Shown piece by piece: positions 1,902 through 19,350 of a DNA stretch of 64,000 nt. Where the stretch lies: the NCBI GenBank assembly GCA_016700415.1, contig CP065018.1, forward strand, positions 3,765,284 through 3,829,283. The letters are read 5' to 3'. Below the pieces are notes generated by a model that searched no databases, was not told where the DNA came from, and was given only the letters and a program-made list of their open reading frames with translations. Every line of letters begins with the position of its first letter. Position 1 is the first letter of the stretch. The DNA is from Flavobacteriales bacterium. Its GTDB lineage: Bacteria; Bacteroidota; Bacteroidia; Flavobacteriales_F; PHOS-HE28. The translations under genes were made by a program, and so were the position numbers.

Positions 1902-2747
1902 TCATGACCTGAACATCAAGATCAACTGCGCCAGCTTGGCCTTCAGGTCCTTGCGCTCCACGATCAGGTCCAAGAACCCATGCTCCAGCACGAATTCGCT
2001 GGTCTGGAAGCCGGGCGGCAGGTCGTGGCCGATGGTCTCGCGCACTATGCGCGGGCCGGCGAAAGCGACCAAGGCTTTTGGCTCTGCAATGTTGAGGTCG
2101 CCCAGCATGGCGAAGCTGGCGGTGACGCCTCCTGTGGTGGGGTCGGTAAGGATGCTGATGAAGGGCAGTCCCTTCTTGGCCATCATGCTGAGCTTGGCGC
2201 TGGTCTTGGCCATCTGCATCAGGCTGAAGCCGGCCTCCATCATGCGGGCACCGCCGCTTTTGCTGATGATGATCAACGGGCACTTGCGGCGCATCGCGGT
2301 GTCGGCGGCCATGGCGATCTTCTCGCCCACCACGCTGCCCATGCTGCCACCAATGAATTTGAAATCCATGCAGGCGATCACCACGGGCTGCTTTTCCAAT
2401 TTCCCCTCGGCGGCGCGAAGGGCGTCGTTCAAGCCGGTGGCTTTTCGCGTTTTGGCCAAGCGGTCCACATACTTCTTGGTATCAACGAAGCCCAATGGGT
2501 CCCCGGCGATCAGCTTGGCCCCGATCTCCTTGAACATGTTGTCGTCGAAGAGGATGCTGAAATACTCCGCGCTTCCGACCTTCTCATGGTGCTGGCACTT
2601 GGCGCAGACCCAGAGGTTCTTGGCGTGGTCGTCGGAGGTCATGATCTCCGAGCATTCCGGGCACTTGTACCAGAGTCCCTCGGGGGTCTCCTTCTTCTCC
2701 TCGGTGGCGGTGGTGATGCCTTCCTTGACGCGATTGAACCAACCCAT
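1902..2747 (-). CDS. accD: acetyl-CoA carboxylase carboxyltransferase subunit beta
   Basis: MGWFNRVKEGITT...CPECSEIMTSDD...CAKCQHH zinc ribbon then carboxyltransferase domain GGSMGSVVGEKI; start chosen at MGWFNR (2745-2747) inside track ORF 1902..2837. Confidence 0.85.
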   Translation of the reverse strand: MGWFNRVKEGITTATEEKKETPEGLWYKCPECSEIMTSDDHAKNLWVCAKCQHHEKVGSAEYFSILFDDNMFKEIGAKLIAGDPLGFVDTKKYVDRLAKTRKATGLNDALRAAEGKLEKQPVVIACMDFKFIGGSMGSVVGEKIAMAADTAMRRKCPLIIISKSGGARMMEAGFSLMQMAKTSAKLSMMAKKGLPFISILTDPTTGGVTASFAMLGDLNIAEPKALVAFAGPRIVRETIGHDLPPGFQTSEFVLEHGFLDLIVERKDLKAKLAQLILMFRS

Positions 2748-2904
2748 GCGTGATGTTTGATCAAGCGAAGTTAAGTGCTCCGAGTTCAGTGGATGACCGC
2801 CCTTGCTTCGCTTACCTTCCTTGCCTCCCTTCCCCACTTCGCCAAGTGATGGAAGCTATGGAGGTAAAGGAAGTACAGGAGGTGGTGGGGGAGTGGAACT
2901 CCAC

Positions 2905-3978
2905 TTACGCGATCGTCACCTTCTTGTCCAAGTACACGTCCTGGATGGCGTTCAGCAGTTGCACGCCTTCTTTCATGGGGCGCTGGAAGGCTTTGCGGCC
3001 ACTGATCAGACCCTGTCCACCGGCGCGCTTGTTGATCACTGCGGTGCGCACGGCTTCGGCCAGGTCGCTGGCACCGCTGCTGGCTCCGCCGCTGTTGATC
3101 AAGCCGATGCGGCCCATGTAGCAGTTGGCCACTTGGTAACGGCAGAGGTCGATCGGATGGTCGGTGGTGAGGTCGCTGTATACTTTCTTGTGCGTCTTTC
3201 CGTATCCGCTGCCCATGGCGGTGTAGCCACCGTTGGACTCGGGCAATTTCTGCTTGATGATGTCCGCTTGGATGGTGACGCCGAGGTGGTTGGCTTGTGC
3301 GGTGAGGTCTGCGGCGGTGTGGTAGTCTTTGCCGTCCTTTTTGAAGCCCGGGTTGCGCAGATAGCACCAGAGAATGGTGGCCATGCCCAGCTCGTGCGCG
3401 TACTGGAATGCCTCGGCCACTTCAGTGATCTGGCGGGTGCTCTCGTCGCTGCCGAAGTAGATGGTGGCGCCCACGGCCACGGCGCCCATGTCCCATGCGC
3501 TTTCCACCGTGCCGAACATCACCTGGTCGAACTTGTTCGGCAGGGTCATCAGCTCGTTGTGGTTGAGCTTCACGATGAAGGGGATCTTGTGAGCATACTT
3601 CCGCGCCACGCTGCCCAGCACGCCGTAGGTGGAGGCCACGGCATTGCAGCCGCCTTCCATGGCCAGTTCAACGATCTTGTCCCCGTCGAAATAGATGGGG
3701 TTCGGTGCGAAACTGGCGCCACCGCTGTGCTCGATGCCTTGGTCCACGGGCAGGATGCTCATGTAGCCGCTGTTGGCCAGTCGGCCATTGCCGTAGAGCG
3801 CCTGGATGCTGCGCATCACCTGCGGATTGCGGTTGCTCAGCGCGAAGGAGCGGTCCACGAAATCAGGGCCGGGCAGGTTCAATTGGGCTTTTTCAATGGT
3901 CTTGCAGGTGTGCCCCAGAAGGCTTTCCGCATCGGCGCCCAACAGTTCGTTCAAATTCCCGGTTTTCATAGTGCTCAT
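2905..3978 (-). CDS. fbaB: class I fructose-bisphosphate aldolase (FbaB/DhnA family)
   Basis: 357 aa; near-colinear similarity to E. coli FbaB ([73 protein letters not shown]). Confidence 0.85.
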
Positions 3979-4214
3979 GTGGCTACGCTAAAAATTTGGC
4001 CGCAAAGGTAGGGTTTGGTGGAGGCTATTGAGAACCGATCTCACCATAGAGGTACTGAGGGCCCGAGGAACAGGTGACAGTATGCAGTATGTAGTCTCCA
4101 GTGGCAGTCGGCCGTAGCAGTTCGTAGCAGCCCGATCACTATCCACGGATAACCAACTGCATTTCTTCGCGCCTCCGCGTCTCTGCGACCATACTCTCTG
4201 TGGATCACGGTAGA

Positions 4215-6758
4215 TCAGAACGGATATCCGATCCCCAGATTGAAATTCAACTTGTTGCCCAAGGTGGTGGTCAACTCCGGTGACTTGGGCTGGAAGAGCC
4301 AGCGCTGTCCCATGGGCAGGCCGGGATCCTTGGTCTGCAGCCCGAGGTCAAAGCGTACGAGGAAGAAATCGAAGTTGAGCCGCGCGCCCACACCGGTGCC
4401 GAAGGCCAGTTCACCGGCCGCCTTGCCGATCTGGAAACCACTGCCGGGCTTGGCGGGGTTTTCCTGGAGGTCCCAGATATTCCCGATGTCCACGAAGAAG
4501 GCACCTTCGAGGTAGCCGATCAGCTTGAACCGGTATTCCGCGTTGCCTTCGATGCGGATCTCGCCCACGCGGTCGAACGCGTCCAATGGGGCGCTGTAGG
4601 AGCCGGGGCCCAGGGAGCGCGCGCGCCAGGCCCGTATGCCGTTCGCCCCACCGCTGAAGAAACTGCTTTCGAAGGGCAGTACCCCCAAGTTTCCGAAGGG
4701 CACGCCCACGCCGGCATCCACGCGGAAGGCCAGACTGCTTTTGGAGTGGATGGTGTGGTAATAGCGCATGTCGTTCTCCACCTTCACGAACTGGGCGAAA
4801 CGCACCCCGGCCAGCGTATAGAAGCTGTTGCCCGCCGTGTCGGTCTGCTGGTCCGTCCGAAAGGCCTCGTTCGTCAACCGCAGCAGGTTTCCCGCGGTCT
4901 GGAGCGTGGGGCGCCATAAAAAGACGTTCCGCTTGTGGTCCCCTTCCTGTGTGTTCAAGGTGAGGGTGGCCCGGGCACCGGCGATCACGTGGTCGGTATA
5001 GCTGTCGCGCAGCACCGCATCGTTGGAGGTCCGGATGAAATCCTGGAAGCCTGTGCTGATCAACGGGATCCGGATGATGTTCACCTCCGCCGGGTACAGG
5101 GCCATGGACAGGGTGCGGCTCTTGTTCCATTCATAGCCGTAGCTCATCTTGGCCAAGGTGCGCGTATAGTCAGGCCGGCGCTGATAGTTGTACAGCAGAT
5201 TTACGGCGGTACGCCTGCCCCAGGTGTTCGGCCAGCGGTCATCGGTGTTCCAGAAGGGGATGATGAAGCGGGGAAAGCGGATGGTGACCTCCGGGCCGAT
5301 CTCCACGGTGTTGAAGAGCACGTCGTGGCCCACGTCGGAACTGGCATCACCGGCGGAGCCGCGGCCGTCCAGGCTCTGTTGCGCCTCTAAGCCGAGCGCC
5401 ATCCGGGCCTGTATGGAGCCCATGCTCCGGAAGAGGTTTTTATGGCGGTAGTTCAGGCTGACGGAGGTGCCCAAGAAGCCGCCGCGGTTGGTGCCGAAGC
5501 CTTCGAGCGAGAGGCTCTGCCGCTTGCTGGGGATGACGTCGATCAAGCAATCGGCCTGGTTGTGGGACCGGGTCTGTGTGGTGTCGAAGGTGATGTCAAC
5601 GCGGTTGAACACGTTCAGGTTGAGCAGGCGGCGGTACGTGCGGTCGTTGGTGGTCTCGCTGAACTTGGACCCTCCCTTCAGGAGGAGGCTGCTGCTCAAT
5701 GCCTTCGGGCGGTAGGCCGGTCTCTTCCCGGTGAAAAGGAAGGTGTAGTTCTTGTATTCCACGGTGTCCGACGGCAAGGGTTTCTTGCCGAAGCCGGGGC
5801 GTTGCGTCATGTCCACCGTGATGTCCTCCAGGAAGTACACGGTCCCTTCCGGGGTGCCCGCCAAGCCGCGCCTCCCGCGGGCCAAGGGACGCTCGAAGCG
5901 GAGCTGCAGGTCCACCTCCTGGTCCCCGGCGCTGGTGTCCGCCACATATTGCAGCAGGTCCCGCGTGAAATAGAGGTAGCCCTGCTTCCGGAGCATTTCG
6001 GTGATGCGGTTGCGTTCCTTATCGAGCACGTCGGCGTCGAAGCGGATGCCGGGGACCAGCAGGGTGGAAGCCCGGGAGGCGCGCACCAGGCTGTCGATGG
6101 CGGGATCGTCCACGGACCATTCCGCCGAACAGATCGTGTAAGGTCGGCCCGCCGTGATGCGGTATTCCACCTCCGCCTTGGGTTGGCGGAAGGCACTGCC
6201 CCGCTTGTTCGAAAAAAGCCTGGAGCGCTCGAAGAAGATGGTGTCGGAAACGGTGGCATTGAAGAAACCCTCTTTGCCGAGGTAGAGCTTCAGTTGGTCC
6301 ACGCTGCGGTCCACCAAGGAACTGTCCAGGATCACCGGAGCCTCGCCCACATCTTCGCGCAGCCACACACGGAGCGTCCGCCGGCACTCTTTGTCCTTCA
6401 CTTGCTTCGGTTCCTTGCCGCGCGCGATGCGCTTGGCGTTTTTCGCTACGGCCTTTTCCGCTCGCCGGACGTTCTTCACGGCACAGATCGAATCCACCTC
6501 TGCCTTGCGACTTGCCGTTTTTTCCGGGCTGCTCCAGTTGTAGAAGTGGAGGTAAAGGCGTTGGCCCAGCACTTTGTTGTTGGGCTTCTGCTTGAGGATG
6601 CCCTTCAGCTCATCCGTGGTAAGGTCCTTGGCATCTGACTTCACGATGTTCCGCACCAAGAGATGCTCGCCCTTGGGCACGCGTTTGGTCGGGTTGCACG
6701 CCGCCAGCAGGGCCGTGACGGCGACCAAGAGGGGGATATGGAACTTGCTGTAGCGCAC
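4215..6758 (-). CDS. Omp85/BamA-TamA family outer-membrane protein with POTRA region and C-terminal beta-barrel
   Basis: 847 aa, N-terminal lipoprotein-like signal (LLAACN), repeated POTRA-like segments, C-terminal aromatic-rich beta-strands ending ...LGIGYPF. Confidence 0.7.
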   Translation of the reverse strand: MRYSKFHIPLLVAVTALLAACNPTKRVPKGEHLLVRNIVKSDAKDLTTDELKGILKQKPNNKVLGQRLYLHFYNWSSPEKTASRKAEVDSICAVKNVRRAEKAVAKNAKRIARGKEPKQVKDKECRRTLRVWLREDVGEAPVILDSSLVDRSVDQLKLYLGKEGFFNATVSDTIFFERSRLFSNKRGSAFRQPKAEVEYRITAGRPYTICSAEWSVDDPAIDSLVRASRASTLLVPGIRFDADVLDKERNRITEMLRKQGYLYFTRDLLQYVADTSAGDQEVDLQLRFERPLARGRRGLAGTPEGTVYFLEDITVDMTQRPGFGKKPLPSDTVEYKNYTFLFTGKRPAYRPKALSSSLLLKGGSKFSETTNDRTYRRLLNLNVFNRVDITFDTTQTRSHNQADCLIDVIPSKRQSLSLEGFGTNRGGFLGTSVSLNYRHKNLFRSMGSIQARMALGLEAQQSLDGRGSAGDASSDVGHDVLFNTVEIGPEVTIRFPRFIIPFWNTDDRWPNTWGRRTAVNLLYNYQRRPDYTRTLAKMSYGYEWNKSRTLSMALYPAEVNIIRIPLISTGFQDFIRTSNDAVLRDSYTDHVIAGARATLTLNTQEGDHKRNVFLWRPTLQTAGNLLRLTNEAFRTDQQTDTAGNSFYTLAGVRFAQFVKVENDMRYYHTIHSKSSLAFRVDAGVGVPFGNLGVLPFESSFFSGGANGIRAWRARSLGPGSYSAPLDAFDRVGEIRIEGNAEYRFKLIGYLEGAFFVDIGNIWDLQENPAKPGSGFQIGKAAGELAFGTGVGARLNFDFFLVRFDLGLQTKDPGLPMGQRWLFQPKSPELTTTLGNKLNFNLGIGYPF

Positions 6759-6835
6759 GGATAGGCGGAAGGACGGCTAATTTGCGCGGCGATGTACGGA
6801 AAGACCATGCCACGGCGGGCGAAGATATTCGGCAA

Positions 6836-7573
6836 ATGAGCGGGGGCCATGTGAAGCGCATGCGTGCGCTGCATCAGCGCAAGTTCCGGGAGGCCGAAGG
6901 GCTGTTCCTGGTGCAGGGGCGGAAGATGCTGCGCGAACTGCTGGCCACCCGGTTCGAGGTGGTGGAGCTGCATGCCACGGAAGAAGCGGCCCGTGAAATG
7001 GGCCTTGCCGACGCGGTCATTTCCCCTGCGCATGATCTGGAGCGCATGGGCACTTTTACTCAGGGCAACGAGATGGTAGCGGTGGTGCGGAAACCGGCCC
7101 CGGCCTCGCTGATCTTGCCAGCGGCCGACCGTTTCGTGCTGGCCGTGGACGACGTTTCCGACCCCGGCAACCTCGGCACATTGCTGCGCATCGCGGACTG
7201 GTTCGGAGCGGAACAGTTGTGGTGCTCCACCGAAAGCGTGGAGGTCTGGAATCCGAAATGCGTGCAGGCGAGCATGGGTTCGATCTTCCGCGTACCGGTG
7301 GTGCCGACCGAACTGCCCGCTGCATTGCGGCAGGCTGCTGAAGGAGGCGTTCATATCTACAAGGCCGAAGCCTCGGGCGCGGATGTTTTCACCGTGAAGT
7401 TGGCCCGACCCGCCGTGCTGGTGCTGGGCAGTGAATCACACGGACTGTCGAAATGCGTGTTGGATGCGCCCGGAAGTTCCATCGCTATTCCGTCCTTCGG
7501 CGGGGCGGAATCGTTGAACGTTTCAGCGGCGGCGGCTGCGCTTTGTATGGAGCTGGTGCGGCATGGGCGGTGA
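6836..7573 (+). CDS. TrmH/SpoU-family RNA 2'-O-methyltransferase
   Basis: MSGGHVKRMRALHQRKFREAEGLFLVQG (substrate-binding N-domain) then SPOUT motifs DDVSDPGNLGTLLRIADWFG, LVLGSESHGLS, IPSFGGAESLNVSAAAA; start at 6836 preferred over track 6782. Confidence 0.8.
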   Translation: MSGGHVKRMRALHQRKFREAEGLFLVQGRKMLRELLATRFEVVELHATEEAAREMGLADAVISPAHDLERMGTFTQGNEMVAVVRKPAPASLILPAADRFVLAVDDVSDPGNLGTLLRIADWFGAEQLWCSTESVEVWNPKCVQASMGSIFRVPVVPTELPAALRQAAEGGVHIYKAEASGADVFTVKLARPAVLVLGSESHGLSKCVLDAPGSSIAIPSFGGAESLNVSAAAAALCMELVRHGR

Positions 7574-7627
7574 TCGTTCCTGTTCCCTCAGATTATGCAC
7601 AAAGGATTAAAAGTAGGCAAAACATAG

Positions 7628-9014
7628 GGGAGTATTCCGAAATGTGTGTCAATCTGCACTGAGGCACGGTGACATTCTCCTGGCCCCAAGCCAAAGGAGA
7701 ATGTCTCCGTGCCGGATCCTCAGACCAGCACATGGGCCAATCTTTCGGGGTACATGTTGCTCAACGACTGAAGGATCTGCGGCCAGCTGCGGACCTTTCT
7801 CTTCCAGCTTTTCTCGTTGTGCTTAAGTGTCAAATATAATTGCTTCTCCAAGGCACTTTCGCTGATGAACGCACCCTTGGTCTTGGTGGCCTTGCGAAGA
7901 ATGCGGTGCAGGGCCTCCACCGGGTTCGTGGTGTAGATCACCCTGCGTATGGCATCGGGATGATCAAAGAACGGGCTTAGCTCGCACCAGTCTTTCTCCC
8001 ACTTGGCCGCGATCTCCGGATATCTCCCTACCCATTCCCGCTTGAACTCCTGGAGCTTTTCCCAGGCCGCTTCGGGACTATCCTGCTGGTAGATCGAACG
8101 CAGTCCTTGGCAAACTGTCTTGTAGTCCTTCCAAGAGACGAACTTCAAGCTGGTGCGCACCATATGGACGATGCAGCGCTGTACGACCGCTCGCGTGAAT
8201 ACGCCTTGGATCGCCTCGCTGAAGCCGTTCAGGCCGTCCACGCTGAAGAACAGCACGTCCTTTACCCCGCGGTCCTTGATGTTCTCCAGAACGCGCGCCC
8301 AATGGCGTGCTCCTTCCGCATCGCCGATGAACAAGCCGAGAACATCACGTTCCCCGTCCATCCTCACCCCGTATACCGAGTAAACGGCTTTGGTCAACAC
8401 CTTTCTATTCTCCCGGACCTTGTAGTGGACCGCATCGAGATAAATGACCACGTACACCTCTTCCAGCGGGCGGTTGCGCCATGTCTCGATCTCCTCGAAC
8501 ACCCGGTCGGTGATCGAGCTGATGAACGATGGGGAGTAGCTCACCCCGTACATCTTCTTTAGATGGTCCCCAATGTCCTCGTAGCTGGTGCCCTTGCCGT
8601 ACAGATGCAGGATCTGGTTCTCCAGTTCGGGGGCCAGCGACCGGTCCCACTTCTTGATGATCGTCGGCTCAAAACTGCCGTTGCGGTCTCGCGGAGGCCT
8701 GACCGAAACGGGACCCAGTGCCGTTCTCACGGTCTTGTCGGTGTAGCCGTTGCGCCTATTGCTCCGCTTCTTCTCCTGGTCCAAATGCGCGTCCATCTCC
8801 CCTTCGAAGGCGGCGGAAAGCAGGCGGCCGATCATGCCCGTGAGCACACCGTGTTCTCCGATCAGGCCCTTGCCTTCTGTCAATCCTTGGATGGCTTCTT
8901 GCTCGAACTTGGCGTAGTCGAACGCCTTCTCTTTTTCAACTTTTCTCTTTTTCATGGGGCAAGTTTCTGAATGGTTTGTCAAACTATCCTTGACACACTT
9001 TTCAGAATACTCTC
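7628..9014. mobile_element. IS256-family insertion sequence (about 1387 bp) with 8-bp target-site duplication AAACATAG
   Basis: Imperfect terminal IRs GGGAGTATTCCGAAATGTGTGTCAA (7628-) and reverse complement of ...TTGACACACTTTTCAGAATACTCTC (-9014); identical direct repeats AAACATAG at 7620-7627 and 9015-9022; encodes mutator-type transposase. Confidence 0.85.
7720..8955 (-). CDS. IS256-family (mutator-type) transposase
   Basis: MKKRKVEKEKAFDYAKFEQEAIQGL...YLDAVHYKVRENRKV...FFSVDGLNGF...CIVHMVRTS; DDE transposase of IS256 family; track ORF extends to 8982 (MTNHSETCP...) which would run into the right IR. Confidence 0.85.
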   Translation of the reverse strand: MKKRKVEKEKAFDYAKFEQEAIQGLTEGKGLIGEHGVLTGMIGRLLSAAFEGEMDAHLDQEKKRSNRRNGYTDKTVRTALGPVSVRPPRDRNGSFEPTIIKKWDRSLAPELENQILHLYGKGTSYEDIGDHLKKMYGVSYSPSFISSITDRVFEEIETWRNRPLEEVYVVIYLDAVHYKVRENRKVLTKAVYSVYGVRMDGERDVLGLFIGDAEGARHWARVLENIKDRGVKDVLFFSVDGLNGFSEAIQGVFTRAVVQRCIVHMVRTSLKFVSWKDYKTVCQGLRSIYQQDSPEAAWEKLQEFKREWVGRYPEIAAKWEKDWCELSPFFDHPDAIRRVIYTTNPVEALHRILRKATKTKGAFISESALEKQLYLTLKHNEKSWKRKVRSWPQILQSLSNMYPERLAHVLV

Positions 9015-9171
9015 AAACATAGTGACTCCCGTAAACTACATTTTACTAAGCTTCACTCCCGAAATGGAACGATCCGCCACACATTCGCCCGCAGGGATGT
9101 CCGCTTCGGGGCCGATACGTATCGGACCGAACAGTTCATCAGCGTGGGTGCCGAGCGAAGTCGAGGTGCAT

Positions 9172-9404
9172 CAACCCGTCAACCCGTCAACCCGTCAACC
9201 CGTCAACCCGTCAACCCGTCAACCCGTCAACCCGTCAACCCGTCAACCCGTCAACCCGTCAACCCGTCAACCCGTCAACCCGTCAACCCGTCAACCCGTC
9301 AACCCGTCAACCCGTCAACCCGTCAACCCGTCAACCCGTCAACCCGTCAACCCGTCAACCCGTCAACCCGTCAACCCGTCAACCCGTCAACCCGTCAACC
9401 CGTC
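9172..9404. repeat. perfect tandem microsatellite, 8-bp unit CAACCCGT (CCGTCAAC) x about 29
   Basis: Uninterrupted cgtcaacc repeats from 9172 to 9404; unit length not a multiple of 3; plus strand open in all frames, minus strand has a stop in each unit. Confidence 0.95.
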
Positions 9405-9487
9405 TTCTAAAGTTACCTTCAGTACTTCCTCCTCCACGCTCCCGGCTTGGGTGTTTCCACACGCGGCATAGTGCAAAACCCCTTGCC

Positions 9488-9997
9488 ATGTTGCGCGGTG
9501 GCCTCTTAGCCTTGTTCCTGGCCTGCCCGCTTTGGGCTTACCTTCGGGTTCCCATGGAAACCGTGCAGTCCCGGTCCGCATGGGCCTGCGTGCGATCCGC
9601 TGCGGGCATGGGCATGGACAAGCACAGCCATAGTTGGAACGCTGATGCAAGAACCAACCTGCGTTGCGAACAGGGACCCGATACCACGAAAACATCCCGT
9701 GCGGAACAGGTGGGCAGCTACCAACACCCGGACCCGGAAGTGTATAGGGAAATACTGTGGCAGATGAAGATGGATCGCCAGCGCCAAGCGACAACGCTGG
9801 AAGGATGCGCAAGCCAACTGCATGAACTTCAACAGCGTGTGGATTTCCTGGAATTGTACGTGGACGAGCTGCGGAAGCACATTGCTTACGAACTTCCCAT
9901 CTCACATGAGGCTCCTACACTCACACCTGCACAAGCGCAATACCTGCGGGAATTGATCCAGAGACCAGTGCCGACCCCATCAACAGAAGAAAAATAA
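9488..9997 (+). CDS. hypothetical protein (weak call)
   Basis: 169-aa ORF downstream of microsatellite; N-terminus hydrophobic (LLALFLACPLWAYL); no recognisable domain; could be non-coding. Confidence 0.25.
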   Translation: MLRGGLLALFLACPLWAYLRVPMETVQSRSAWACVRSAAGMGMDKHSHSWNADARTNLRCEQGPDTTKTSRAEQVGSYQHPDPEVYREILWQMKMDRQRQATTLEGCASQLHELQQRVDFLELYVDELRKHIAYELPISHEAPTLTPAQAQYLRELIQRPVPTPSTEEK

Positions 9998-10239
9998 AAA
10001 AAGCCCCCGGTGCTATGAACACCGAGGGCCGTAACTCCAGTCCCACGAACACGCGAATGAACATGAAACAGAGATAGCAAAGATACGATCCTCCCTGGAG
10101 CAAGCCGCATGCCGGGTGGGACGGTGAGCACCCGGTATCCACGATCACGTGGCCGGAAGCGGAAAGCATCTTTGGGAAAACCTAGCGTGTCTTCCAAGTG
10201 CCGAAGAAGCGGTGAACAAGAAAGGAGAAAAACAAAAAC

Positions 10240-10258
10240 ATGCTCAAAGCACTCCTTC
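10240..10258 (+). other. orphaned start codon and first six codons (MLKALL) of the T9SS cargo gene, separated from the rest of the gene by the IS3 insertion
   Basis: ATG at 10240 preceded by AGGAGA; deleting 10259..11527 (IS plus one TSD copy) joins in-frame to 11528 giving MLKALLPSLTNLATRAIPLALVAALAVKATAQ, a canonical signal peptide. Confidence 0.7.
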
Positions 10259-10313
10259 TGTAGTACTCCCCAAAAACTGGACAGGTAGCTAAGGTGGCTA
10301 AACTTGTCCAAGG

Positions 10314-10751
10314 ATGACCCGCAAAAGCAGAAGGAAGTTCACTCCCGCATTCAAGGCGCAAGTTGCGCTTGAGGCCGTGAAGGAGAACCATACGATGGCA
10401 GAGCTGGCGATGCGCTTTGAGATCGCACCAGCACAGATCGGCCAATGGAAGAAGCAGTTGGCGGAGAACGCCGCTGGGGTCTTTGAAGGGACCCCGACGG
10501 CGTCCTCCGCCATGCCAGGTGGTCACGACCCCGAAAAATTGTTCGCCGAGATCGGCAGGTTGAAAATGGAGAACGACTTGCTAAAAAAACGGTCCGATGA
10601 GCGTGGCACAAAAGCGGCATGCCATTGCCACCGTTCAGGAAGGCAGCATCATGGAGCGCTGCCGGGCGCTGGACCTTGCACGCAGCAGCTTCTACTATCA
10701 GCCCAAAGGAGAAAGCGCGTTGAACTTGGAATTGATGCGTTTGATGGATGA
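10314..10751 (+). CDS. IS3-family transposase OrfA (HTH); the track ORF reads through the frameshift site into non-native C-terminus
   Basis: MTRKSRRKFTPAFKAQVALEAVKENHTMAELAMRFEIAPAQIGQWKKQLAENAAGVFEG...LFAEIGRLKMENDLLKK; canonical OrfA ends near the A7 run (about 10590). Confidence 0.8.
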   Translation: MTRKSRRKFTPAFKAQVALEAVKENHTMAELAMRFEIAPAQIGQWKKQLAENAAGVFEGTPTASSAMPGGHDPEKLFAEIGRLKMENDLLKKRSDERGTKAACHCHRSGRQHHGALPGAGPCTQQLLLSAQRRKRVELGIDAFDG

Positions 10752-11495
10752 AGAGGACACCAAGCATTGCTTCCATGGGTGATCGGCATGCGCGACTTTC
10801 TGAGGCTTGAAAAGGGCTATTGGGTGAACGAAAAGCGGGTGCGCAGGCTCCTTCGGCTAATGGGCTTGGAGGCCGTTGCGCCCAAGCCTGACCTGAGCAA
10901 ACCCGCCAACGGGCATAGGGTCTATCCCTACTTGTTGAGAGGTGTGCAGATTGAAGCTCCGGGGCATGTTTGGAGCACCGACATCACCTACATCGCCATG
11001 GGCAAAGGGTTCCTGTATCTCACCGCCGTGATGGACTGGCACAGCCGCTACGTGCTCTCTTGGCAGATCAGCAACACCTTGGACACCTCCTTCTGTCTGG
11101 AAGCTTTGCATGGTGCGCTGTTGCAATATCCTGCACCAATGATCTTCAATACCGACCAAGGCAGCCAATACACCAGCGACCTCTTTACCGGGGCGTTGAT
11201 CCAGGAAGGCATCAAGGTGAGCATGGATGGCAAGGGCCGGGCTACGGACAATGCGTTCATCGAACGACTTTGGAGAAGCGTGAAGCAGCAATGCGTCTAT
11301 CGCCATAGCCCCGCCGATGGGAATGAGCTGCGCAGCCTTCTGGCCGAGTACTTCGCCTATTACAACCACCAACGACCACACCAGCACCTGGATGGACTGA
11401 CCCCGGCACACCTTTACTTTGGTCTGCCCGATACCCGGAACCGTACCCTGACACCAAACCTTGTTGAACCCCAATTCACACTAACAACCGCCTGA
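10585..11495 (+). pseudogene. IS3-family transposase OrfB (DDE integrase core), frame-disrupted
   Basis: OrfB N-terminal segment (ERCRALDLARSSFYYQPKGESALNLELMRLMDEEDTKHCFHG) lies in the +1 frame relative to OrfA and terminates at 10782; the catalytic core (WVIGMRDFLRLEKGYWVNEKRVRRLLRLMGL...DQGSQYTS...RPHQHLDGLTP) resumes in the OrfA frame from 10767, implying an extra indel near ttccatgggtgatcgg. Confidence 0.55.
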
Positions 11496-11532
11496 AACCT
11501 GTCCAGTAAATCGGGAGTACCTCATTCCTTCC

Positions 11533-12522
11533 TTGACAAACCTCGCCACTCGTGCAATCCCCTTGGCGCTTGTGGCTGCTCTCGCTGTGAAAGCGACGGC
11601 ACAAAACCTCGTTCCGAACCCGAGCTTCGAGGATACGGCCCGATGTAATGCGGAATACGACCCGGTGCTTTTATCTGCACCACCATGGTTCAAACCGACC
11701 ACCGCCTCTTCGGATATTTACGATAATGATCTTGAACAACTCTGCGGTATCGCATGGGATCCCGCGAATCCGGACGTTCAGGCCAGTGGTTTCCAATTTG
11801 CGCGAACAGGAACTCGCTTTGCAGGTGCCTTCCATTGGTTTGGTGCAAATAGTTCTGACTCGAAAGACTATTTTACCGTTAAGCTAACTGAGGCTCTGAT
11901 TGAGCAAACGGCCTACGACGTTTCGCTATACTACAGCCGAGCTGACGGATATGCCTTTGCCACAGACCGCATCAGTGTCTTTTTCGGGCCGGACAGTTTC
12001 TATGTGCATGATTACCGCACTTTGCATGTGCAGCCGCAAGTTGACTTGATGGACCCGAATAACGAGTACCTAACTAACGCAGAGGATTGGGTCCTGCTAA
12101 CGGGTTCATTTGTCGCAACGGGAGGCGAACGGTACATGACCATCGGTTCTTTCTTGGACAGTTCCCAAGTGAACGGCACGACCGCACCCACAGGAAATCT
12201 GCCATACGCCTATTACTACTATGATGACATTGCGGTGTCGCCAGTACATCAATCAGGTATCGATGAATTGGAATTTTCCGGAGCAGTAACGGGTGACGGC
12301 AACCTGCGGTTGATAGGATTGTCGGATGGCACCTATGTAGCGCGATTGATCGATCGAATTGGTCGGGTCATTCAAGAATTCAAACAAGTCCGCTCCATGG
12401 CAGGGCATGCGGACATCGCAATAGGGGACCAAGGCATGGCTCACGGGCTATACTTGGTATCGGTTGAGTCAAGCGAAGGGAGGGGGGCCACCCGGTTCGT
12501 TTATACCGGTAGGCGGCAATGA
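11533..12522 (+). pseudogene. T9SS-secreted protein gene (signal peptide, beta-rich body, C-terminal T9SS sorting domain) interrupted in codon 7 by the IS3 element
   Basis: Track ORF begins at TTG 11533 with partial signal peptide TNLATRAIPLALVAALAVKATAQ; C-terminus LRLIGLSDGTYVARLIDRIGRVIQEF...GLYLVSVESSEGRGATRFVYTG resembles T9SS type-A CTD; authentic start is upstream of the IS at 10240. Confidence 0.65.
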
Positions 12523-12540
12523 GCGTAACACCTCACAACA

Positions 12541-14854
12541 ATGAAGATCGCAATACTTTTGGCTGCTTTGGCCATTCTGGCGAGCACCTCAACTAAGGCA
12601 CAAGGGCCTCCGGACTGGAACACGATCGGTAACAATACTTTGAATCCGGTGACAAGTTTTTTGGGAAACACGGATGGCATTCCCATCAACTTTCGCACGA
12701 ACAACGTACTGCGGATGCGTCTCAACGAAAGCCTGCCCGGCCAGCCGGTGAACAACTTCCCGAACGTGGACCTGAGCGGTCACCTTGGGATCGGGGCGCC
12801 GGTGCCACCGCAAGCGCTGAGCTTTCTGCACATCAACAACAATGGCAGCTTTTTCGCGGGCTTCCGGCCGTGGATGCGCAGGGGTGAGCATGTCCGAGAA
12901 CACGGACTGGATGTACGTGGGTGCGAAGAACCAGGGCGAGGACCTCGTTGATGCCGTGATCAACTGGGGTGACAATAAGGAAGCCGACCCTACCTATGGT
13001 CCGGATGCGTTGCGTTTCATTTTCACGCGAACGATGAGCAACATCAATATCGCCTCCCAGATGGACGGATTGGAGTTGGCCCGTATCATTCCGGACCCCT
13101 CTGGGAATCAGGGTTACTTCGGCATTGGGGATTACTTCACCGCTGCGACGAACCCTTCGGAGCGGTTGGATGTGCTGAATGGCCGTGTGGCGATCCGGCA
13201 ATTGCCCACGGACCCGGTAAGCGCCAGCATGGAGGCCGTTGTCCTGAACACCACCACCGGCGTGCTGGAACACCGTCCGTTCCCCACCACCACCGGTGGC
13301 CCGGATTGTGATTGGACCCCGATCGCTGGTGCGATCAATGAACTCCGCACAGCGAATGCACCGGCAGGGACCGTGGGTGCTTGCCCTGATCAACGCTGGA
13401 AGGTACAGATCGGGACGCCATCGACCGCAGGGCCATACAGGCTAACAGTCGGGGTGAACCAGGTCACCTGTGCGAATTGTGGGATAACCGGAGGGACCAA
13501 TGTGGATGTTAAAGGTGATGGGGGCGGCAGTGTGAATGGTTCAAACATACTTGTAGAGTCCGCAACTTCCGGGTCCGCCAATCAGATCAAGGGGCTTAAA
13601 ATCGTGACCCGCAATGCGGGGTCGATCAACTACGGCATAGAGGTGGATGCGACGAACAATGTTGCGAATATAAGCAGCTCTGTTTATGGGGCATGGATCA
13701 AAGCAGTGAACCAAGCGGGAGGGAAAACCGCACAATTGTATGGCCTGCGTGGCAGTGCTGAGGCAACGGATGTTAATTCGGCTACACTTGCGAAGGGGGT
13801 GTGGGGTAGGGCGGTCAATGGGATTACAAACGATGGCTTACGTGGGGAAGCCACTGGAGGGAGCAGCTCCACAAACTATGGAGTTTACTCGGATGCCTCA
13901 AGTGGTGTGATGAACTATGGGTTGCATGCTAAAGGGTCCGGTGCCACGGGTTCCACCAACTATGGGGTCTGGACCTTAGGGCAAAACGGGACCACGAACT
14001 ATGGGGTCCTCGCAAATGCGATCGGTGGTGGGGGAAGCACCAACTATGGGGTCTGGGCCACCGCGTCGGGTGGGGCCACCAACTGGGCCGGGTACTTCAA
14101 AGGTCGAGTGATGATCACGGACTCGGCTTGGGTGCTGGGCAACCAGATCGTGACTTCGGACGCGAACCTGAAAACGAACGTGGAGGACCTTACCGGGGCA
14201 TTGGACAAGGTGTTGCAGATGCAGCCGAAAACGTATGAGTTCATTCAGGATGCTCTGCCACAGGCGCACCTGACCGAAGGGCCGCAAGTCGGCCTTATCG
14301 CTCAAGAACTGGAGCCCATCTTGCCGGAGGCCGTGGGGCATACCACAGTGCCTGCGGAACTGGACAGTCTGGGAGCGGAGATTTTTCCGGCCGTAGCGAT
14401 CGCGGGGATCGACTATAACAAAGTGACCCCGGTGTTGATCGGTGCGATCAAAGAGCAGCAAGCGATGATCGATCAGCAACAAGCCACCATTGCCCAACTC
14501 CAAGACCAGATCAACCATTGTTGCGCAACACAAGGTGATGCGGCCCAAAGAGGAAGTGCGGAACAAGGGTCCATGCCCCAGGAGAACGAACTCCAAGAGC
14601 AGCGCCTGTTGATCATCCCCAACCCGGTGGCGGACCTCACCACGTTGGAATACTACGTGCCCAAAGCGGGCAAGGTGAGCTTGCAGGTGAGCACCAGCGA
14701 TGGGAAGCCTTTGGCCACCTTGCGTGAGGAACTGGCCGAAACCGGTGCATACAACTACAGTTGGAACACCACCAAGTTGGCGGCGGGCACCTACTTCTGC
14801 ACCTTCATGCTGGACGGTGCCGTGGTGGTGAAGCGTGCGGTGAAGGTGAAGTGA
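12541..14854 (+). CDS. tail-fiber-like T9SS cargo protein with NYGV repeats, peptidase-S74-type intramolecular chaperone domain and T9SS C-terminal domain; apparent frameshift near 12850
   Basis: 12541 ORF gives signal peptide MKIAILLAALAILASTSTKAQ plus N-terminal region; switches frame (+1) to the 12842..14854 ORF; repeated STNYGV motifs; TSDANLKTNVEDL...GLIAQELEPILPEAV...IDYNKVTPVLIGAIKEQQAMIDQQQATIAQLQDQI (endosialidase-chaperone-like); C-terminal LLIIPNPVADLTTLEYYVP...GTYFCTFMLDGAVVVKRAVKV = T9SS CTD. Confidence 0.6.
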
Positions 14855-14948
14855 GAAGAACAGGATGCAAGTGACCGCAGGGTCCGCTGATCATCGGAGA
14901 TGATGGTTGGCGAGACCCTGCGGCTGCATGGGTTGCTTTTGCCAGCGT

Positions 14949-16505
14949 CTATGTCGTTTCCGCGATCGCCCGCGCCACTCGCAAACCGTCCATCGCAGCG
15001 CTGACGATACCTCCGGCATAGCCTGCACCTTCAGCACACGGGTACAACCCACGCACTTGCGGATGCTCCAGTGTTTCCAGATCGCGGGGAATGCGGACCG
15101 GCGAGCTGGTGCGCGATTCCACGGCCACCAGCACGGCCTCGTTGGTGCGGTAGCCGTGCATTTTTTCGCCGAAGGCTTTCAACCCTTCACGCAGACGGGA
15201 TGCGATCGCTTGGGGCAGCACCTCGTCCATTGTTGCGGGGACGATCCCCGGCGGGTAGCTGCACGCGGGAAGGTCAATGCTGAGGCGACGTCCGATAAAA
15301 TCCTCCATGCGTTGCGCGGGCGCGGACTGCCGCTCGCCGCCGAATTTCCAGGCGTTGCGTTCCAGGCTCTGCTGCCAGCGCAGGCCCGCCAAGGCGGCGT
15401 CCGGCCCTTTGCTTTCCGGGAGGTCCGCCGGGTCCACGGCCACCACGATGCCGCTGTTGGCGAAGGGATTGTTGCGCTTGCTGGGGCTCCAGCCGTTGGT
15501 GACCACCTCGCCGGGCGCGGTGGCGCAGGGCGCGATGATGCCGCCGGGGCACATGCAGAAGCTGTACACGCCGCGCCCTTCCACCTGCTGCACCACGCTG
15601 TAGCTGGCGGGCGGCAGGAAGGGGTCGCGGACGGTGCTGTGGTAGCGGATCCGGTCGATCACCGATTGCGGATGCTCGATGCGCACGCCCATGGCGAATG
15701 ACTTCGCCTCGATCGCGATGCCTTTGGCGTGAAGCAGCTCGAAGATGTCGCGGGCGGAATGGCCCGTGGCCAGCACCACCGAAGTGGCGAGGACCTCATC
15801 GCCCTGTGCCGTACGCACGCCGTGTATGCGACCGTCGGTGATCAGGAAGTCGTTCACGCGTGTGCCGAATCGCACTTCGCCGCCCGCCGCTTCAATGGCC
15901 TCGCGCATAGCGGTGACGATCTCGGGGAGCTTGTTGGTGCCGATGTGCGGATGGGCGTCCACGAGGATGTCCGGCGAGGCACCGAACGCGGTGAAGGTCT
16001 TCAGCACCGCCGCCACATCGCCGCGCTTGTCGCTGCGGGTATAGAGCTTACCGTCGCTGTAGGTGCCCGCGCCGCCTTCACCGAAGCAGTAATTGCTGTC
16101 GGGGTCCACCACGTGATCGCGGTTGATGGCGGCGAGGTCGCGGCGCCGTGCGCGGACGTCCTTGCCGCGCTCCAGAATGATGGGCCGTAGCCCGTGTTCG
16201 ATGCAGCCCAACGCCGCGAATAGGCCGGCAGGTCCGCAGCCCACGATGATCACGGGTTCCGCCTTGCTGACATCGGGCAGTTCCGGCGGTGCTTCCGGCA
16301 GTTCCGGGAATTCTTCTTCCGTGGAAACTTCCACACGCAAGCGCACCAAGGGAAGTTTGCTGCGCGCATCGATGGAGCGTTTCACCACGCGTGCGCCCTT
16401 TACTTGTTCAAGCTTCACCGAACAGGCTTCAGCGGCTGCTTCGCGCACCAGTGCCGGGTCGGCGGCCTCTTGCGGAGGAAGGGCGATGTCCACGGTGCGG
16501 TTCAT
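14949..16505 (-). CDS. FAD-dependent oxidoreductase (uncharacterized FAD-dependent dehydrogenase family)
   Basis: 518 aa; Rossmann dinucleotide motif VIIVGCGPAGLFAAL, ...VLATGHSARD..., C-terminal GLYPCAEGAGYAGGIVSAAMDG. Confidence 0.75.
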   Translation of the reverse strand: MNRTVDIALPPQEAADPALVREAAAEACSVKLEQVKGARVVKRSIDARSKLPLVRLRVEVSTEEEFPELPEAPPELPDVSKAEPVIIVGCGPAGLFAALGCIEHGLRPIILERGKDVRARRRDLAAINRDHVVDPDSNYCFGEGGAGTYSDGKLYTRSDKRGDVAAVLKTFTAFGASPDILVDAHPHIGTNKLPEIVTAMREAIEAAGGEVRFGTRVNDFLITDGRIHGVRTAQGDEVLATSVVLATGHSARDIFELLHAKGIAIEAKSFAMGVRIEHPQSVIDRIRYHSTVRDPFLPPASYSVVQQVEGRGVYSFCMCPGGIIAPCATAPGEVVTNGWSPSKRNNPFANSGIVVAVDPADLPESKGPDAALAGLRWQQSLERNAWKFGGERQSAPAQRMEDFIGRRLSIDLPACSYPPGIVPATMDEVLPQAIASRLREGLKAFGEKMHGYRTNEAVLVAVESRTSSPVRIPRDLETLEHPQVRGLYPCAEGAGYAGGIVSAAMDGLRVARAIAETT

Positions 16506-16608
16506 GGGGAAGACATGAGTCGGGAGTCTGGAGTCGTAAGTCCGACCGTCCGATCACCACTCCGCATTATCAGCGATCATCCGCTCTTTCAGCGTCATCT
16601 GCGTTCCA

Positions 16609-17340
16609 CTACCCTTCGAACGTGAACGTCAGCACATAGGTCTTGGTGCGGAGGCTCTGTATCGGTCTGCTGAATCGCGTGTCATCGTCCACCACTAAGT
16701 TTGGGATGCCGATGCCGGTCTTCAGCTCGATGCCGAACTTGAAGTAGGGGAGGAACATGTCGATACCGGCACCGGCCTCCGCGCTGTAGTCGTATTTTTT
16801 CAGTTTCACCACGATGTCCTCGTCGATGTCGTTATTCACGTCCTTCTTGCTGGCCATGTCGATGCCGAACTTGCCGCCACCGATCACATAGACCGCGAAG
16901 TTGTTGATGCGGTCGCTGCGGAATTTCAGCAGGAGCGGGAATTCGAGATAAGTGCTCTCGATGGGTTTCTGGAAGCTGGAGGTCGTGCCGTCCGCCTTGC
17001 GGAAGGAGTACTTAAGGATGCGGTCCTGGAAGGAGAGTGTGGGCAGGAAGCGCAGGCTGAGGTTGTTGGTCATGTTCAGCGAGGCCACGATGCCGAGGTT
17101 GAAACCGGGCTGCTTCACGTGGTCGATCACCAGCACGGAATCCGCGAAGGGCGCGGTGGGCTTCAGCGTCATGAAGAAGTCACTGGTGTTGTAGCTGAGC
17201 AGGAAGCCGAAGTGGAAGCGGTGCAGGTCGAAGTTGGGCAGGTTCTGGACCTTCACACCGGTGCGTTGGGCGGAAGCCGGGGCCGCGATGCAGAGGAGCA
17301 GGAGCGGAGCGAGGAGGTAGGAGAGCTTGAGGAAACGCAT
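16609..17340 (-). CDS. PorT-family outer-membrane beta-barrel protein
   Basis: MRFLKLSYLLAPLLLLCIAAPASAQ signal peptide then alternating-hydrophobic beta-strand pattern, C-terminal ...TYVLTFTFEG; start at 17338-17340 rather than track 17385. Confidence 0.6.
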   Translation of the reverse strand: MRFLKLSYLLAPLLLLCIAAPASAQRTGVKVQNLPNFDLHRFHFGFLLSYNTSDFFMTLKPTAPFADSVLVIDHVKQPGFNLGIVASLNMTNNLSLRFLPTLSFQDRILKYSFRKADGTTSSFQKPIESTYLEFPLLLKFRSDRINNFAVYVIGGGKFGIDMASKKDVNNDIDEDIVVKLKKYDYSAEAGAGIDMFLPYFKFGIELKTGIGIPNLVVDDDTRFSRPIQSLRTKTYVLTFTFEG

Positions 17341-17391
17341 CGGGTAAAGCAACGAAAGTAGCGGGCAATTCGTGCGTGGGCTCATTTGCGG

Positions 17392-17618
17392 CAGGGCTAT
17401 CGGGTCTTGAGCGCCCTGCGGGCGCCTAAGACCGCGTGTTCTTTACCACGGATGGACACGGATCAACACGGATCCAAGCCCCAAGGTCGATGAGCCTATG
17501 CTTAGGGATCCATTGCTCTGTGCTGTCCCTCATCCGTGTACATCCGTGTCCATCCGTGGTTCCTTGCATGCTGTGCGAAGCGCCGATAGGCGCGAGAAAT
17601 TAAGACCCGATAGCCCTG
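17392..17618. mobile_element. MITE-like non-autonomous element (227 bp) with perfect 17-bp terminal inverted repeats and 10-bp target-site duplication
   Basis: TIRs CAGGGCTATCGGGTCTT (17392-17408) and AAGACCCGATAGCCCTG (17602-17618); direct repeats TCATTTGCGG at 17382-17391 and 17619-17628; interior has inverted triple heptads (cacggat x3 / atccgtg x3); no ORF. Confidence 0.7.
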
Positions 17619-18335
17619 TCATTTGCGGGCCATGTACAGCGTGGCCACGCCGAAGGTGAGCAGGCGCGAATTGATCTCTTTTAGTCCACAGGTGTTCAGC
17701 ACTTCTTCAAAGGCTTTTCCCTGCGGGAACGCGTCCACACTTTCGGGCAGGTAGGTGTAGGCGGCGTTGTCCTTGCTTACCAAGCGGCCGATCAGCGGCA
17801 TCACCCGGTGGAAGTAGAAGCGGAACAATTGCTTAAAGGGCGTGCGTTGCGGCCTGCTGAACTCCAGCACGAAGAGCCTTCCACCGGGGCGTAATACGCG
17901 CACCATCCCGGCAATGCCCCGGGCGAGGTCCTCGAAGTTCCTAACGCCGAAGGCCACGGTGATCGCATCGAAGGAAGCGTCCGGAAAGGGAAGCTCCGCC
18001 GCATCGGCCTGTATGAGTTCGATACGGTCCGACAGGCCGGCTTTCTCCACCTTGGTGCGGCCATGGGCCAGCATGCCCGCCGAGATGTCCGCGCCGGTGA
18101 CGTGCTTGGCCACCGTGCTGCCCATGATGGCGAGGTCAGCGGTGCCGGTGGCCACATCCAGCAGGCGGTCCACGGGTTCCTTGCCCACGCCACGGATCAC
18201 TTTCCGGCGCCAGCCTTGGTCGGTACCCAATGAGCAGAGCCGGTTCAACAGATCGTACTTCGGAGAGATGCGGTCGAACATCAGTTCCACCTGCTCCCGC
18301 TTGGACCCTTCGGCCGCGTACGGTTTTACGGTCAT
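17619..18335 (-). CDS. menG: demethylmenaquinone/ubiquinone C-methyltransferase
   Basis: MTVKPYAAEGSKREQVELMFDRISPKYDLLNRLCSLGTDQGWRRK...LLDVATGTADLA... UbiE/MenG class I SAM MTase; start at 18333-18335 inside track ORF 17619..18491. Confidence 0.85.
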   Translation of the reverse strand: MTVKPYAAEGSKREQVELMFDRISPKYDLLNRLCSLGTDQGWRRKVIRGVGKEPVDRLLDVATGTADLAIMGSTVAKHVTGADISAGMLAHGRTKVEKAGLSDRIELIQADAAELPFPDASFDAITVAFGVRNFEDLARGIAGMVRVLRPGGRLFVLEFSRPQRTPFKQLFRFYFHRVMPLIGRLVSKDNAAYTYLPESVDAFPQGKAFEEVLNTCGLKEINSRLLTFGVATLYMARK

Positions 18336-19339
18336 GGCTTGCGGGCGGGTGTGCCCGGTCCTATGCGTTCGGCCTCCGCCGTCAACCGGGCGAGGTCCAC
18401 GGGTACCACGCCCACATGCTCGCAGACCAGCCCGCCGGCGAGGTTCGCCCATGCGGCGATCTCCGCGAGCGGCATTCCCATGGCCAAGCACAGGCCGGCC
18501 ACCGCGATCACGGTATCGCCGGCGCCACTGACATCGATGATGTTCCGCTTGTGCGCGGGCAGCAAGATCTCTTCACCCGGACCATGCGCGAACACGCCGT
18601 GCTCACTGAGGGTGATCAAGGAGGCCTTGTTCGCCAAGCGCGCTTCCAGCATGCGGACGGCTGCGCCCACCGCGGCCTTGTCACCGGCCGGGATGTCCAC
18701 CTTCAGGCCATCGCGCAATTCCTTCAGGTTGGGTTTGAAGAGGTCCACCTCGCGGTAATCGAAGAAGTGCCTGCGTTTGGGGTCCACGGCCACGGGGATG
18801 CCGATGCGGTGCGCCTCGGTGATGAGGCCTGCGATCACGCCCGGGGAAAGCACGCCTTTGTCGTAATCCTCGAGGATCAGCACGCCCGGCTTCTCCTTCC
18901 GCATCAGTTCGAAGACGTGGTGCAGGAAGCGGCGTTCCTCTTCCGCGGAAAGGTCGCTCAGGGTCTCCTCATCCACACGTACCACATGCTGGTCGCCGCT
19001 GATGATGCGCGTCTTCACGGTGGTGCGTCGATCGGAAGAGCGCAGGATCCCATCGCTGGAAAGACCTTCCTCGGCAAAGATCCGGGCCAGATCTTCGGCA
19101 TGGGCATCCTCTCCGATAACGCTGGCCACGATGGCTTTGGCACCGAGAGCGCGGATGTTCAGGGCCACGTTGGCGGCGCCGCCGAGGCGGGCACTGCGGC
19201 GGCCCACCTGCACCACGGGCACGGGCGCTTCGGGGCTGATGCGGTCCACGCGCCCCCAGAGGTAGGCGTCCAGCATCACATCGCCCACCACCAGTGCGGT
19301 GATGCTTTTGAAGCCGTTTGTGATCTCTTTTGGGGTCAT
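18332..19339 (-). CDS. stand-alone D-glycero-beta-D-manno-heptose-7-phosphate kinase (HldE/RfaE domain I, PfkB family)
   Basis: ALVVGDVMLDAYLWGRVDRISPEAPVPVVQVGRRSARLGGAANVALNIRALGA... colinear with E. coli HldE kinase domain; DVSGAGDTVIAVAG PfkB motif. Confidence 0.8.
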   Translation of the reverse strand: MTPKEITNGFKSITALVVGDVMLDAYLWGRVDRISPEAPVPVVQVGRRSARLGGAANVALNIRALGAKAIVASVIGEDAHAEDLARIFAEEGLSSDGILRSSDRRTTVKTRIISGDQHVVRVDEETLSDLSAEEERRFLHHVFELMRKEKPGVLILEDYDKGVLSPGVIAGLITEAHRIGIPVAVDPKRRHFFDYREVDLFKPNLKELRDGLKVDIPAGDKAAVGAAVRMLEARLANKASLITLSEHGVFAHGPGEEILLPAHKRNIIDVSGAGDTVIAVAGLCLAMGMPLAEIAAWANLAGGLVCEHVGVVPVDLARLTAEAERIGPGTPARKP

Positions 19340-19350
19340 GGGCTAATGGT

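Follow-up and report, generated by a model that had tools for sequence, protein, structure and literature searches.

Insertion of an IS3-family element in codon 7 of a gene encoding a predicted secreted protein in an activated-sludge Flavobacteriales bacterium

In the assembly GCA_016700415.1 of a Flavobacteriales bacterium, an insertion sequence (IS) separates a short gene start from a 329-aa open reading frame (ORF), which raises the question of whether a transposition has split one gene and, if so, what is left of its expression and export. The locus was analysed in a 64,000-nt stretch of contig CP065018.1 (positions 3,765,284 to 3,829,283 of the forward strand), which is called the window here and supplies all coordinates. 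The original prediction, made from the sequence alone, was that an IS3-family element had entered codon 7 of a gene for a cargo protein of the type IX secretion system (T9SS), and that its removal would restore an intact N-terminus. The explanation that fits best as a whole, with a probability of roughly 0.93, is transposition of an IS3-family element into the 5' end of a gene encoding a Sec/T9SS-secreted, carbohydrate-binding-module (CBM)-like protein, with duplication of TTC. The host of the insertion is PHOS-HE28 sp002396605, an activated-sludge Flavobacteriales.

The element is 1266 bp long and runs from TG at 10259 to CA at 11524, and TTC stands at 10256-10258 and again at 11525-11527; the termini, the coordinates and the duplicated triplet were all confirmed on the sequence as predicted. 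The insertion point lies after the first base of codon 7, and the element and the target gene are co-oriented. On the left side, ATG 10240 is followed by CTC AAA GCA CTC CTT C, after which the element opens with TGTAGTACTCCCC at 10259 and closes with GGGAGTACCTCA at 11524. The bases beside TTC differ at both junctions, which fixes the duplication at exactly 3 bp and the limits of the element at 10259 and 11524. Excision in silico gives ATG CTC AAA GCA CTC CTT CCT TCC TTG, which is in frame and opens a protein of 337 aa.

Alleles without the element carry the same arrangement. The empty sites L001 and L100 read CACTCCTTC joined to CTTCCTTGAC, with one TTC. In L001, a Flavobacteriales metagenome-assembled genome (MAG; GCA_016717735.1), the DNA AAACATGCTCAAAGCACTCCTTCCTTCCTTGACAAACC is the left flank of the window to 10258 joined directly to the window from 11528. 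This locus carries the ortholog P0002 (88% identity), whose first 32 residues are the same as those of the reconstruction. The metagenome contig L100 (ENA ERZ22157918) is the window minus 10259-11527, with 1 mismatch in 1303 nt, and encodes P0270, which is identical to the reconstructed protein over all 337 aa. In addition, 16 relatives, from 88% down to about 41% identity, start with the equivalent of MLKALLPSLTNLATRAIPL. The pairwise comparison with an uninterrupted ortholog, which had been proposed as a check, thus matched the reconstruction in both cases, and the codon-7 insertion and the in-frame excision are borne out. A native start at TTG 11533 was also considered. It was rejected because the orthologs begin with MLKALLPSLTNL and the empty alleles have the full 5' end. 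The 329-aa "hypothetical protein" annotated in several MAGs of the public databases (e.g. MBK6892788.1) is the IS-truncated gene, and its true product has 337 aa.

The terminal inverted repeats (IRs) of the element are 28 bp long and imperfect, with 22 of 28 positions matching. From the tip, they are composed of TG, two mismatches, a block of 8/8 (GTACTCCC), five positions with one match, and a block of 11/11 (ACTGGACAGGT). Blocks of 11/11 and 7/7 at the tips had been predicted; the 11/11 block is real but lies on the inner side, and the other block is 8/8. The IR core pattern occurs twice in the 64 kb, both times at the ends of the element, where shuffled sequences lead one to expect 0.

An assembler might have placed a multi-copy IS wrongly inside this gene. 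The element is indeed multi-copy, and short-read contigs break within it, as is expected of such a repeat. However, the left junction is present on two short JGI contigs (L005 and L006), and the right junction is found, base for base, on 13 further loci, which include Illumina wastewater assemblies (PRJEB8087), JGI contigs, and 3 MAGs with the whole element at the same site. The MAGs of L090 and L091 were assembled from Nanopore reads and polished with Illumina reads. Two of the MAGs, JADJDX and JADJHT, are listed as PHOS-HE28 sp002396605 (Flavobacteriales) from Danish activated sludge, assembled from Nanopore reads with Illumina polishing (Singleton et al. 2021). Both junctions thus recur in short-read assemblies that different projects made independently, and the element has a perfect 3-bp target duplication at its ends. 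Together with the whole-element MAGs and the empty allele L100, these junctions led to the rejection of a mis-assembled junction, which is now extremely improbable. They show a real allele that segregates in the population, where the occupied form is seen on at least 15 contigs and the identical empty form on 1 contig among the sampled assemblies.

The family assignment of the element also held. The NCBIfam IS3 model NF033516 (cut-off 160) scored 214.9 bits on the orfB fragment of the window and 285.8 bits, as a full-length match, on the fused OrfAB of a sister copy. The orfB side carries the Pfam domains HTH_21, rve, and rve_3, and the TG...CA ends and the 3-bp duplication agree with this family. 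The DDE residues are encoded at 10980-10982 (D), 11154-11156 (D), and 11262-11264 (E), with spacings of 58 and 36. A sister copy in L008 is 1268 bp long, has 83% nucleotide identity, and is flanked by a duplication of AAA. It encodes a 95-aa orfA and an orfB in the -1 frame, with a run of eight A (A8) at the orfA/orfB overlap, where the orfA stop and the orfB ATG overlap as ATGA. The copy in L088 is 99.7% identical, with CCG as its duplication and ends conserved as in L008, and the copy in L089 is 97.9% identical, with an intact 299-aa orfB. The A8 run, the 95-aa orfA, and the -1 frame of orfB are shared by the sister copies L008, L088, L089, and L092, in which a -1 frameshift at the A-run would yield OrfAB. 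At least four annotated copies are present on the QQS72594.1 contig, and at least four in GCA_016702475.1. The copies in L088, L089, and L090 have different flanks which, with the empty alleles L001 and L100, mark the element as mobile. A scan of genome-collection contigs returned no identical transposase copy, the best being L008 with 91% amino acid identity. Folding of the 90 nt downstream of the slippery run gave z = -0.51 and no significant frameshift-stimulating structure. Among annotated plasmid-borne relatives, the nearest reach only 64% identity in OrfB (Hymenobacter plasmids) or 52-53% (ISGlo6 and ISPpy1); hence the element is probably unnamed. It is active in the PHOS-HE28 lineage of activated-sludge Flavobacteriales. 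The features of the locus are collected in Table 1.

Table 1. Coordinates of the interrupted gene, the inserted element and the surrounding island in the window
Feature	Position	Strand	Basis
Native upstream region (putative promoter and 5' UTR), now cut off from most of the gene	9993..10239	+	97.7% identical to L001; 100% over the last 100-123 nt in L007 and L100
Orphaned target 5' end: ATG, codons 1-6, first base of codon 7	10240..10258	+	Sequence and translation; orthologs start MLKALLPSLTNL
Left copy of the TTC duplication	10256..10258	.	Single TTC at empty sites L001, L007, L100
IS3-family insertion sequence, 1266 bp	10259..11524	+	Block missing from empty sites; 99.7% to copy L088, 83% to L008
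Left terminal inverted repeat TGTAGTACTCCCCAAAAACTGGACAGGT	10259..10286	+	IR alignment
orfA, HTH_Tnp_1 DNA-binding protein, 145 aa here	10314..10751	+	Pfam PF01527, 5.3e-10
Slippery run, A7 here; A8 (A AAA AAA A, -1 frameshift type) in L008, L088, L089, L090, L091, L092	10583..10589	+	Alignments
orfB N-terminal part (HTH_21 region), +1 frame relative to orfA, severed from the catalytic part	10597..10782	+	Three-frame translation; continuous in intact 299-aa orfB of P0121 and P0256
Second 1-nt deletion, CCATGGGTGATC here, CCATGGAGTGATC in L088, L089, L090, L092	10773..10784	+	Alignments
orfB catalytic part (rve, DDE)	10788..11495	+	Pfam rve 1.7e-21, rve_3 8.8e-18; NF033516 214.9 bits
Right terminal inverted repeat, reverse complement TGAGGTACTCCCGATTTACTGGACAGGT, 22/28 against the left	11497..11524	-	IR alignment
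Right copy of the TTC duplication	11525..11527	.	Sequence, empty sites
Remainder of target gene, last two bases of codon 7 to stop; longest ORF from TTG 11533, 329 aa	11528..12522	+	329-aa product identical on 15 contigs
Retained part of the signal peptide: MTNLATR, AIPLALVAALAV, KATA; predicted cleavage ATA/Q	11533..11601	+	Hydropathy, charge; invariant T30, A31, Q32; Q-rule
Predicted jelly-roll beta-sandwich, CBM4/16/22-like	11605..12243	+	AlphaFold2, mean pLDDT 91.5; Foldseek
Divergent putative T9SS type A C-terminal sorting domain, 7-strand sandwich	12277..12504	+	Model residues 249-324; family profile
SpoU methylase gene, left border of island	6782-7573		
Extra IS256-type element, 420-aa transposase	7720-8982	-	Comparison with L001
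FAD-dependent protein gene, right border of island	14949-16505		

The protein that the insertion divides has the layout of a secreted protein. Its reconstructed N-terminus contains K3 and R15 and a 12-residue hydrophobic core, AIPLALVAALAV, with a 9-residue Kyte-Doolittle mean of 3.0, followed by KATA and the site ATA/Q. T30, A31, and Q32 are invariant across 17 relatives. In Bacteroidetes, signal peptidase I exposes an N-terminal glutamine, which is known as the Q-rule (PMC5837995). The invariant context and this rule suggest that Q32 is probably the first mature residue. A canonical Sec signal peptide had been predicted, and its charge, core, and A-x-A/Q site bear this out, except that Q32 probably belongs to the mature protein and not to the signal peptide.

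From the N-terminus, a confident structure model built on 65 relatives (mean pLDDT 91.5) shows the signal peptide as a helix, then a jelly roll at about residues 25-237, and finally a seven-strand sandwich at residues 249-324. Foldseek matched the jelly roll to CBM4-2, CBM16, and CBM22 in the PDB, with a TM-score of about 0.6 on the target and 10-16% identity. No Pfam family was found for this domain in the target or its close relatives. The passenger is a predicted CBM-like domain of a putative sugar-binding type.

The C-terminal sandwich was compared with T9SS C-terminal domains (CTDs) through the family. Among the close relatives, TIGR04183 is matched by 8 of 17 (best 2.9e-5) and PF18962 by 5 of 17. 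The C-terminal family profile matched the solved T9SS CTDs 8glk_D (6e-6) and that of mirolase (8qb1, 3.5e-5) and, more weakly, the gingipain R2 CTD (0.03). In more distant relatives, the same position is occupied by PF18962, by PF13585 (a type B domain), or by OmpA. The assignment of the target as a T9SS cargo is thus supported indirectly, at the family level. The C-terminal domain of the original prediction is supported through the relatives, the profile, and the model, and not through a curated-model match on the protein itself. The neighbouring gene reaches TIGR04183 at threshold (24.0 bits, threshold 23).

The insertion changes how the gene can be read. The orphaned 5' end now reads MLKALLL and stops at TAG 10261-10263, in the tip of the IS. 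The native promoter may drive this 7-codon mini-ORF, after which transcription would enter the IS. Expression of the rest of the gene would then depend entirely on read-through transcripts that reach it at their distal end, from the native promoter or from one in the IS. Such transcripts are plausible because the IS and the gene are co-oriented and the + strand has no terminator-like site within the IS or beyond it; on the - strand there are three, as many as shuffles lead one to expect. In the target frame, no ATG, GTG, or TTG follows the stop at 11482 before TTG 11533, which lies 38 nt past the orfB stop, and translation may start at this weak codon. A product from TTG 11533 keeps R (one positive charge), the whole hydrophobic core, and ATA/Q; therefore, it should still be exported if made. 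The starts at 11563, 11572, and 11587 are chosen by some gene callers, and products from them would lack a working signal peptide.

Signals for transcription and translation were also searched for. A sigma-70-type promoter scan gave one weak site inside the IS, which is fewer than in shuffles. The -7 box of Bacteroidota (TAnnTTTG) has no exact match in 9950-11560; it occurs only four times on the + strand of the 64 kb and is thus uninformative here. Rfam and tRNA scans of the window found nothing. An SD-like (Shine-Dalgarno-like) AGGAGA upstream of the ATG had been named as an expression signal. Ribosomes of Bacteroidia do not use SD sequences (PMC6847099, PMC7797042), so AGGAGA is unlikely to be functional and is probably irrelevant. 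The A-rich stretch before the ATG is more relevant, and TTG 11533 has no such stretch.

The likely outcome is strong down-regulation, rather than a null allele or a mis-targeted protein. It is also possible, though rather unlikely, that the insertion does not silence the gene, and that read-through or outward transcription with a start at TTG 11533 leads to normal export, so that the allele is near-neutral or re-regulated. The shared orientation, the + strand free of terminator-like sites, and the truncated N-terminus with its R, full core, and cleavage site would all allow this. The occupied allele is also the commoner one among the sampled assemblies (at least 15 contigs against 1 identical empty contig), and its 329-codon ORF is intact in all occupied contigs. 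However, a single difference in 1303 nt separates the occupied from the empty allele, and the insertion is thus too recent for ORF integrity to speak on selection. In addition, TTG is a weak start with no A-rich, Kozak-like context before it (PMC6847099), and no outward promoter was recognised in the scans.

The element itself differs from its sister copies in the transposase frames. Against all other copies, the window copy has three private differences, namely seven A (A7) and not A8 at 10583-10589, T to G at 10756, and the loss of an A from CATGGAGTG at about 10778. As written, orfA runs to 145 aa because its A-run lacks one base, whereas elsewhere it has 95 aa and ends in LLKKTVR before its stop. 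The 95-aa form was counted on 35 contigs, of which many are short-read, against a single contig for the 145-aa form. The 145-aa orfA and a 235-aa orfB of the window are annotated as QQS72594.1 and QQS72595.1 in a Flavobacteriales MAG. In three-frame translation, the catalytic part of orfB is back in the frame of orfA, behind a stop codon. Since orfB is split over the +1 and 0 frames, no single -1 frameshift yields OrfAB from the window copy as written.

These differences may be read as decay. On that reading, the copy is a non-autonomous relic with genuine mutations at both sites (A8 to A7, and the deletion at about 10778), and to move or excise it would need transposase that other copies provide in trans. 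The extended orfA, the +1 N-terminal segment of orfB, and the catalytic part behind a stop fit such a relic. So do the clustering of the three private differences within 200 bp and the exact 145-aa product in the public annotation (QQS72594.1). However, the same insertion has A8 in L090, L091, and L092, and in L092 both transposase frames are open (95 and 299 aa). A different single nucleotide is deleted in L091 at precisely the same place, and L090 lacks one nucleotide elsewhere, which is the pattern expected of consensus errors. Runs of A6, A7, and A8 all occur among the long-read MAG copies, A8 stands on 35 contigs, and the MAG series is Nanopore-based. The intact L092 and the differing private indels of L090 and L091 make consensus errors in a multi-copy repeat likelier than decay. 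The two 1-nt deletions of the window copy are thus somewhat more probably consensus errors, and real decay is a serious possibility with less weight.

Apart from the window copy, the A6 version of the slippery run fuses OrfAB into a single 393-aa ORF. Many private 1-nt indels occur in the public long-read MAGs of this species (L090 and L091; P0272, P0273, and P0267). Examples are frameshifts near a G-run at the C-terminus of the target protein, which give 336-aa versions, and split IS256 and IS3 transposases. Frameshifted genes in long-read MAGs of the species should be treated with caution, and frameshifts within a multi-copy IS of such MAGs should not be taken as decay unless reads support it.

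Some results weigh against the interpretation given above. No TIGR04183 or PF18962 match to a T9SS CTD was obtained on the target protein itself, even at E<=10, and it gave no other Pfam or NCBIfam match. The scans recognised a promoter neither upstream of the gene nor outward from the IS, and both the proposed polar or down-regulating effect and initiation at TTG 11533 are what we infer from the layout. The window and L092 have zero indels between them outside the IS, over about 6.7 kb of flank, which leaves room for both transposase deletions being real.

The target gene lies within a strain-variable island. The flanks are 99% identical to L001 (window 2335-7576 and 14960-20456), whereas the region between them has been remodelled and the target gene is only 90% identical to its L001 counterpart. 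The content of the island (7576-14960) is unlike L001 and includes an IS256-type element, an 8-nt tandem repeat, a 169-aa ORF, the IS3 copy, and an extra Peptidase_S74/T9SS gene. The repeat at 9171-9404, between the IS256-type element and the 169-aa ORF, is perfect, with 29.2 copies of the 8-nt unit TCAACCCG and 100% matches. Its copy number varies between assemblies of the same locus, with L090 and L091 set apart from the window and L092. The unit length is not divisible by three, and the ORFs 8971-9471 and 9144-9410 cross the array as PVNPSTRQ repeats. A 13-bp G+C-rich hairpin at 10002-10030 follows the 169-aa ORF, before the upstream region of the target, in a region that is conserved in L001 and L007. 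It is terminator-like only on the - strand, where the T-run lies.

The downstream gene is present in two overlapping frames, 12541-12951 (136 aa, with a signal peptide) and 12842-14854 (670 aa). In the 670-aa part, a Peptidase_S74 intramolecular-chaperone domain is combined with a T9SS type A CTD that scores at threshold. The same split occurs in L002, L092, L093, and L096-L098, whereas L095 has a 713-aa ORF and L001 lacks the whole gene. Because the split is shared by assemblies that include short-read contigs, it looks real, as a pseudogene or through recoding.

A related arrangement is found in L007 (Ga0138256_10189323). It is identical to the reconstructed gene at 198 of 200 positions from -100 to +100, that is, over the 5' UTR and signal peptide up to codon 34. 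Right after AQNLV it diverges abruptly, and ungapped comparison in steps of 25 nt gives about 20-60% base matches. Further along, the contig carries part of the downstream gene (95% to 12694-12879) and the upstream region once more (95.6% to 9993-10129), and this layout suggests tandem cassettes with one common leader. Conservation within the family is much higher in the signal peptide than in the mature part; in P0026, the former matches at 28 of 32 positions and the latter at 38%. A near-invariant promoter, 5' UTR, and leader joined to very different mature domains (L007 and P0026) raise the idea that T9SS cargo, surface-bound or secreted, is encoded here in a system of recombining cassettes. 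In such a system, the IS3 element in the leader would be a population-level off-switch or a re-wiring of expression. This idea is speculative and, on the sequences compared, improbable.

The insertion is correct and fully documented, but it is an ordinary event. As a clean pair, the occupied and empty alleles might be used to mark strains in wastewater metagenomes. Beyond annotation, its significance is small.

Compared with known systems, the element resembles the IS3 family (IS3 of E. coli, IS911, and IS150) in its length of 1.27 kb, its TG...CA ends, its imperfect IRs, and its 3-bp duplication. In the sister copies, orfA (HTH) is followed in the -1 frame by orfB (HTH_21 and rve, with DD(35)E), with a slippery A-run, and this order is also that of the family. 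The ATGA overlap of the orfA stop with the orfB ATG is likewise found in IS3. In contrast to the family, the window copy has two extra frameshifts. The target resembles T9SS type A cargo in its A-x-A/Q signal peptide and its 7-strand C-terminal sandwich. The family profile matches the CTDs of the F. johnsoniae cargo (8glk_D), mirolase (8qb1), and RgpB, and its relatives are named T9SS type A sorting domain proteins. It differs in a CTD too divergent for the curated models and in a jelly-roll passenger without a Pfam family. As in classical IS insertional mutagenesis, the insertion lies between the promoter and start codon on one side and the gene body on the other, and occupied and empty alleles co-exist in near-identical strains. 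The difference from classical IS disruption is only a slight twist, in that the remaining ORF keeps a usable signal peptide.

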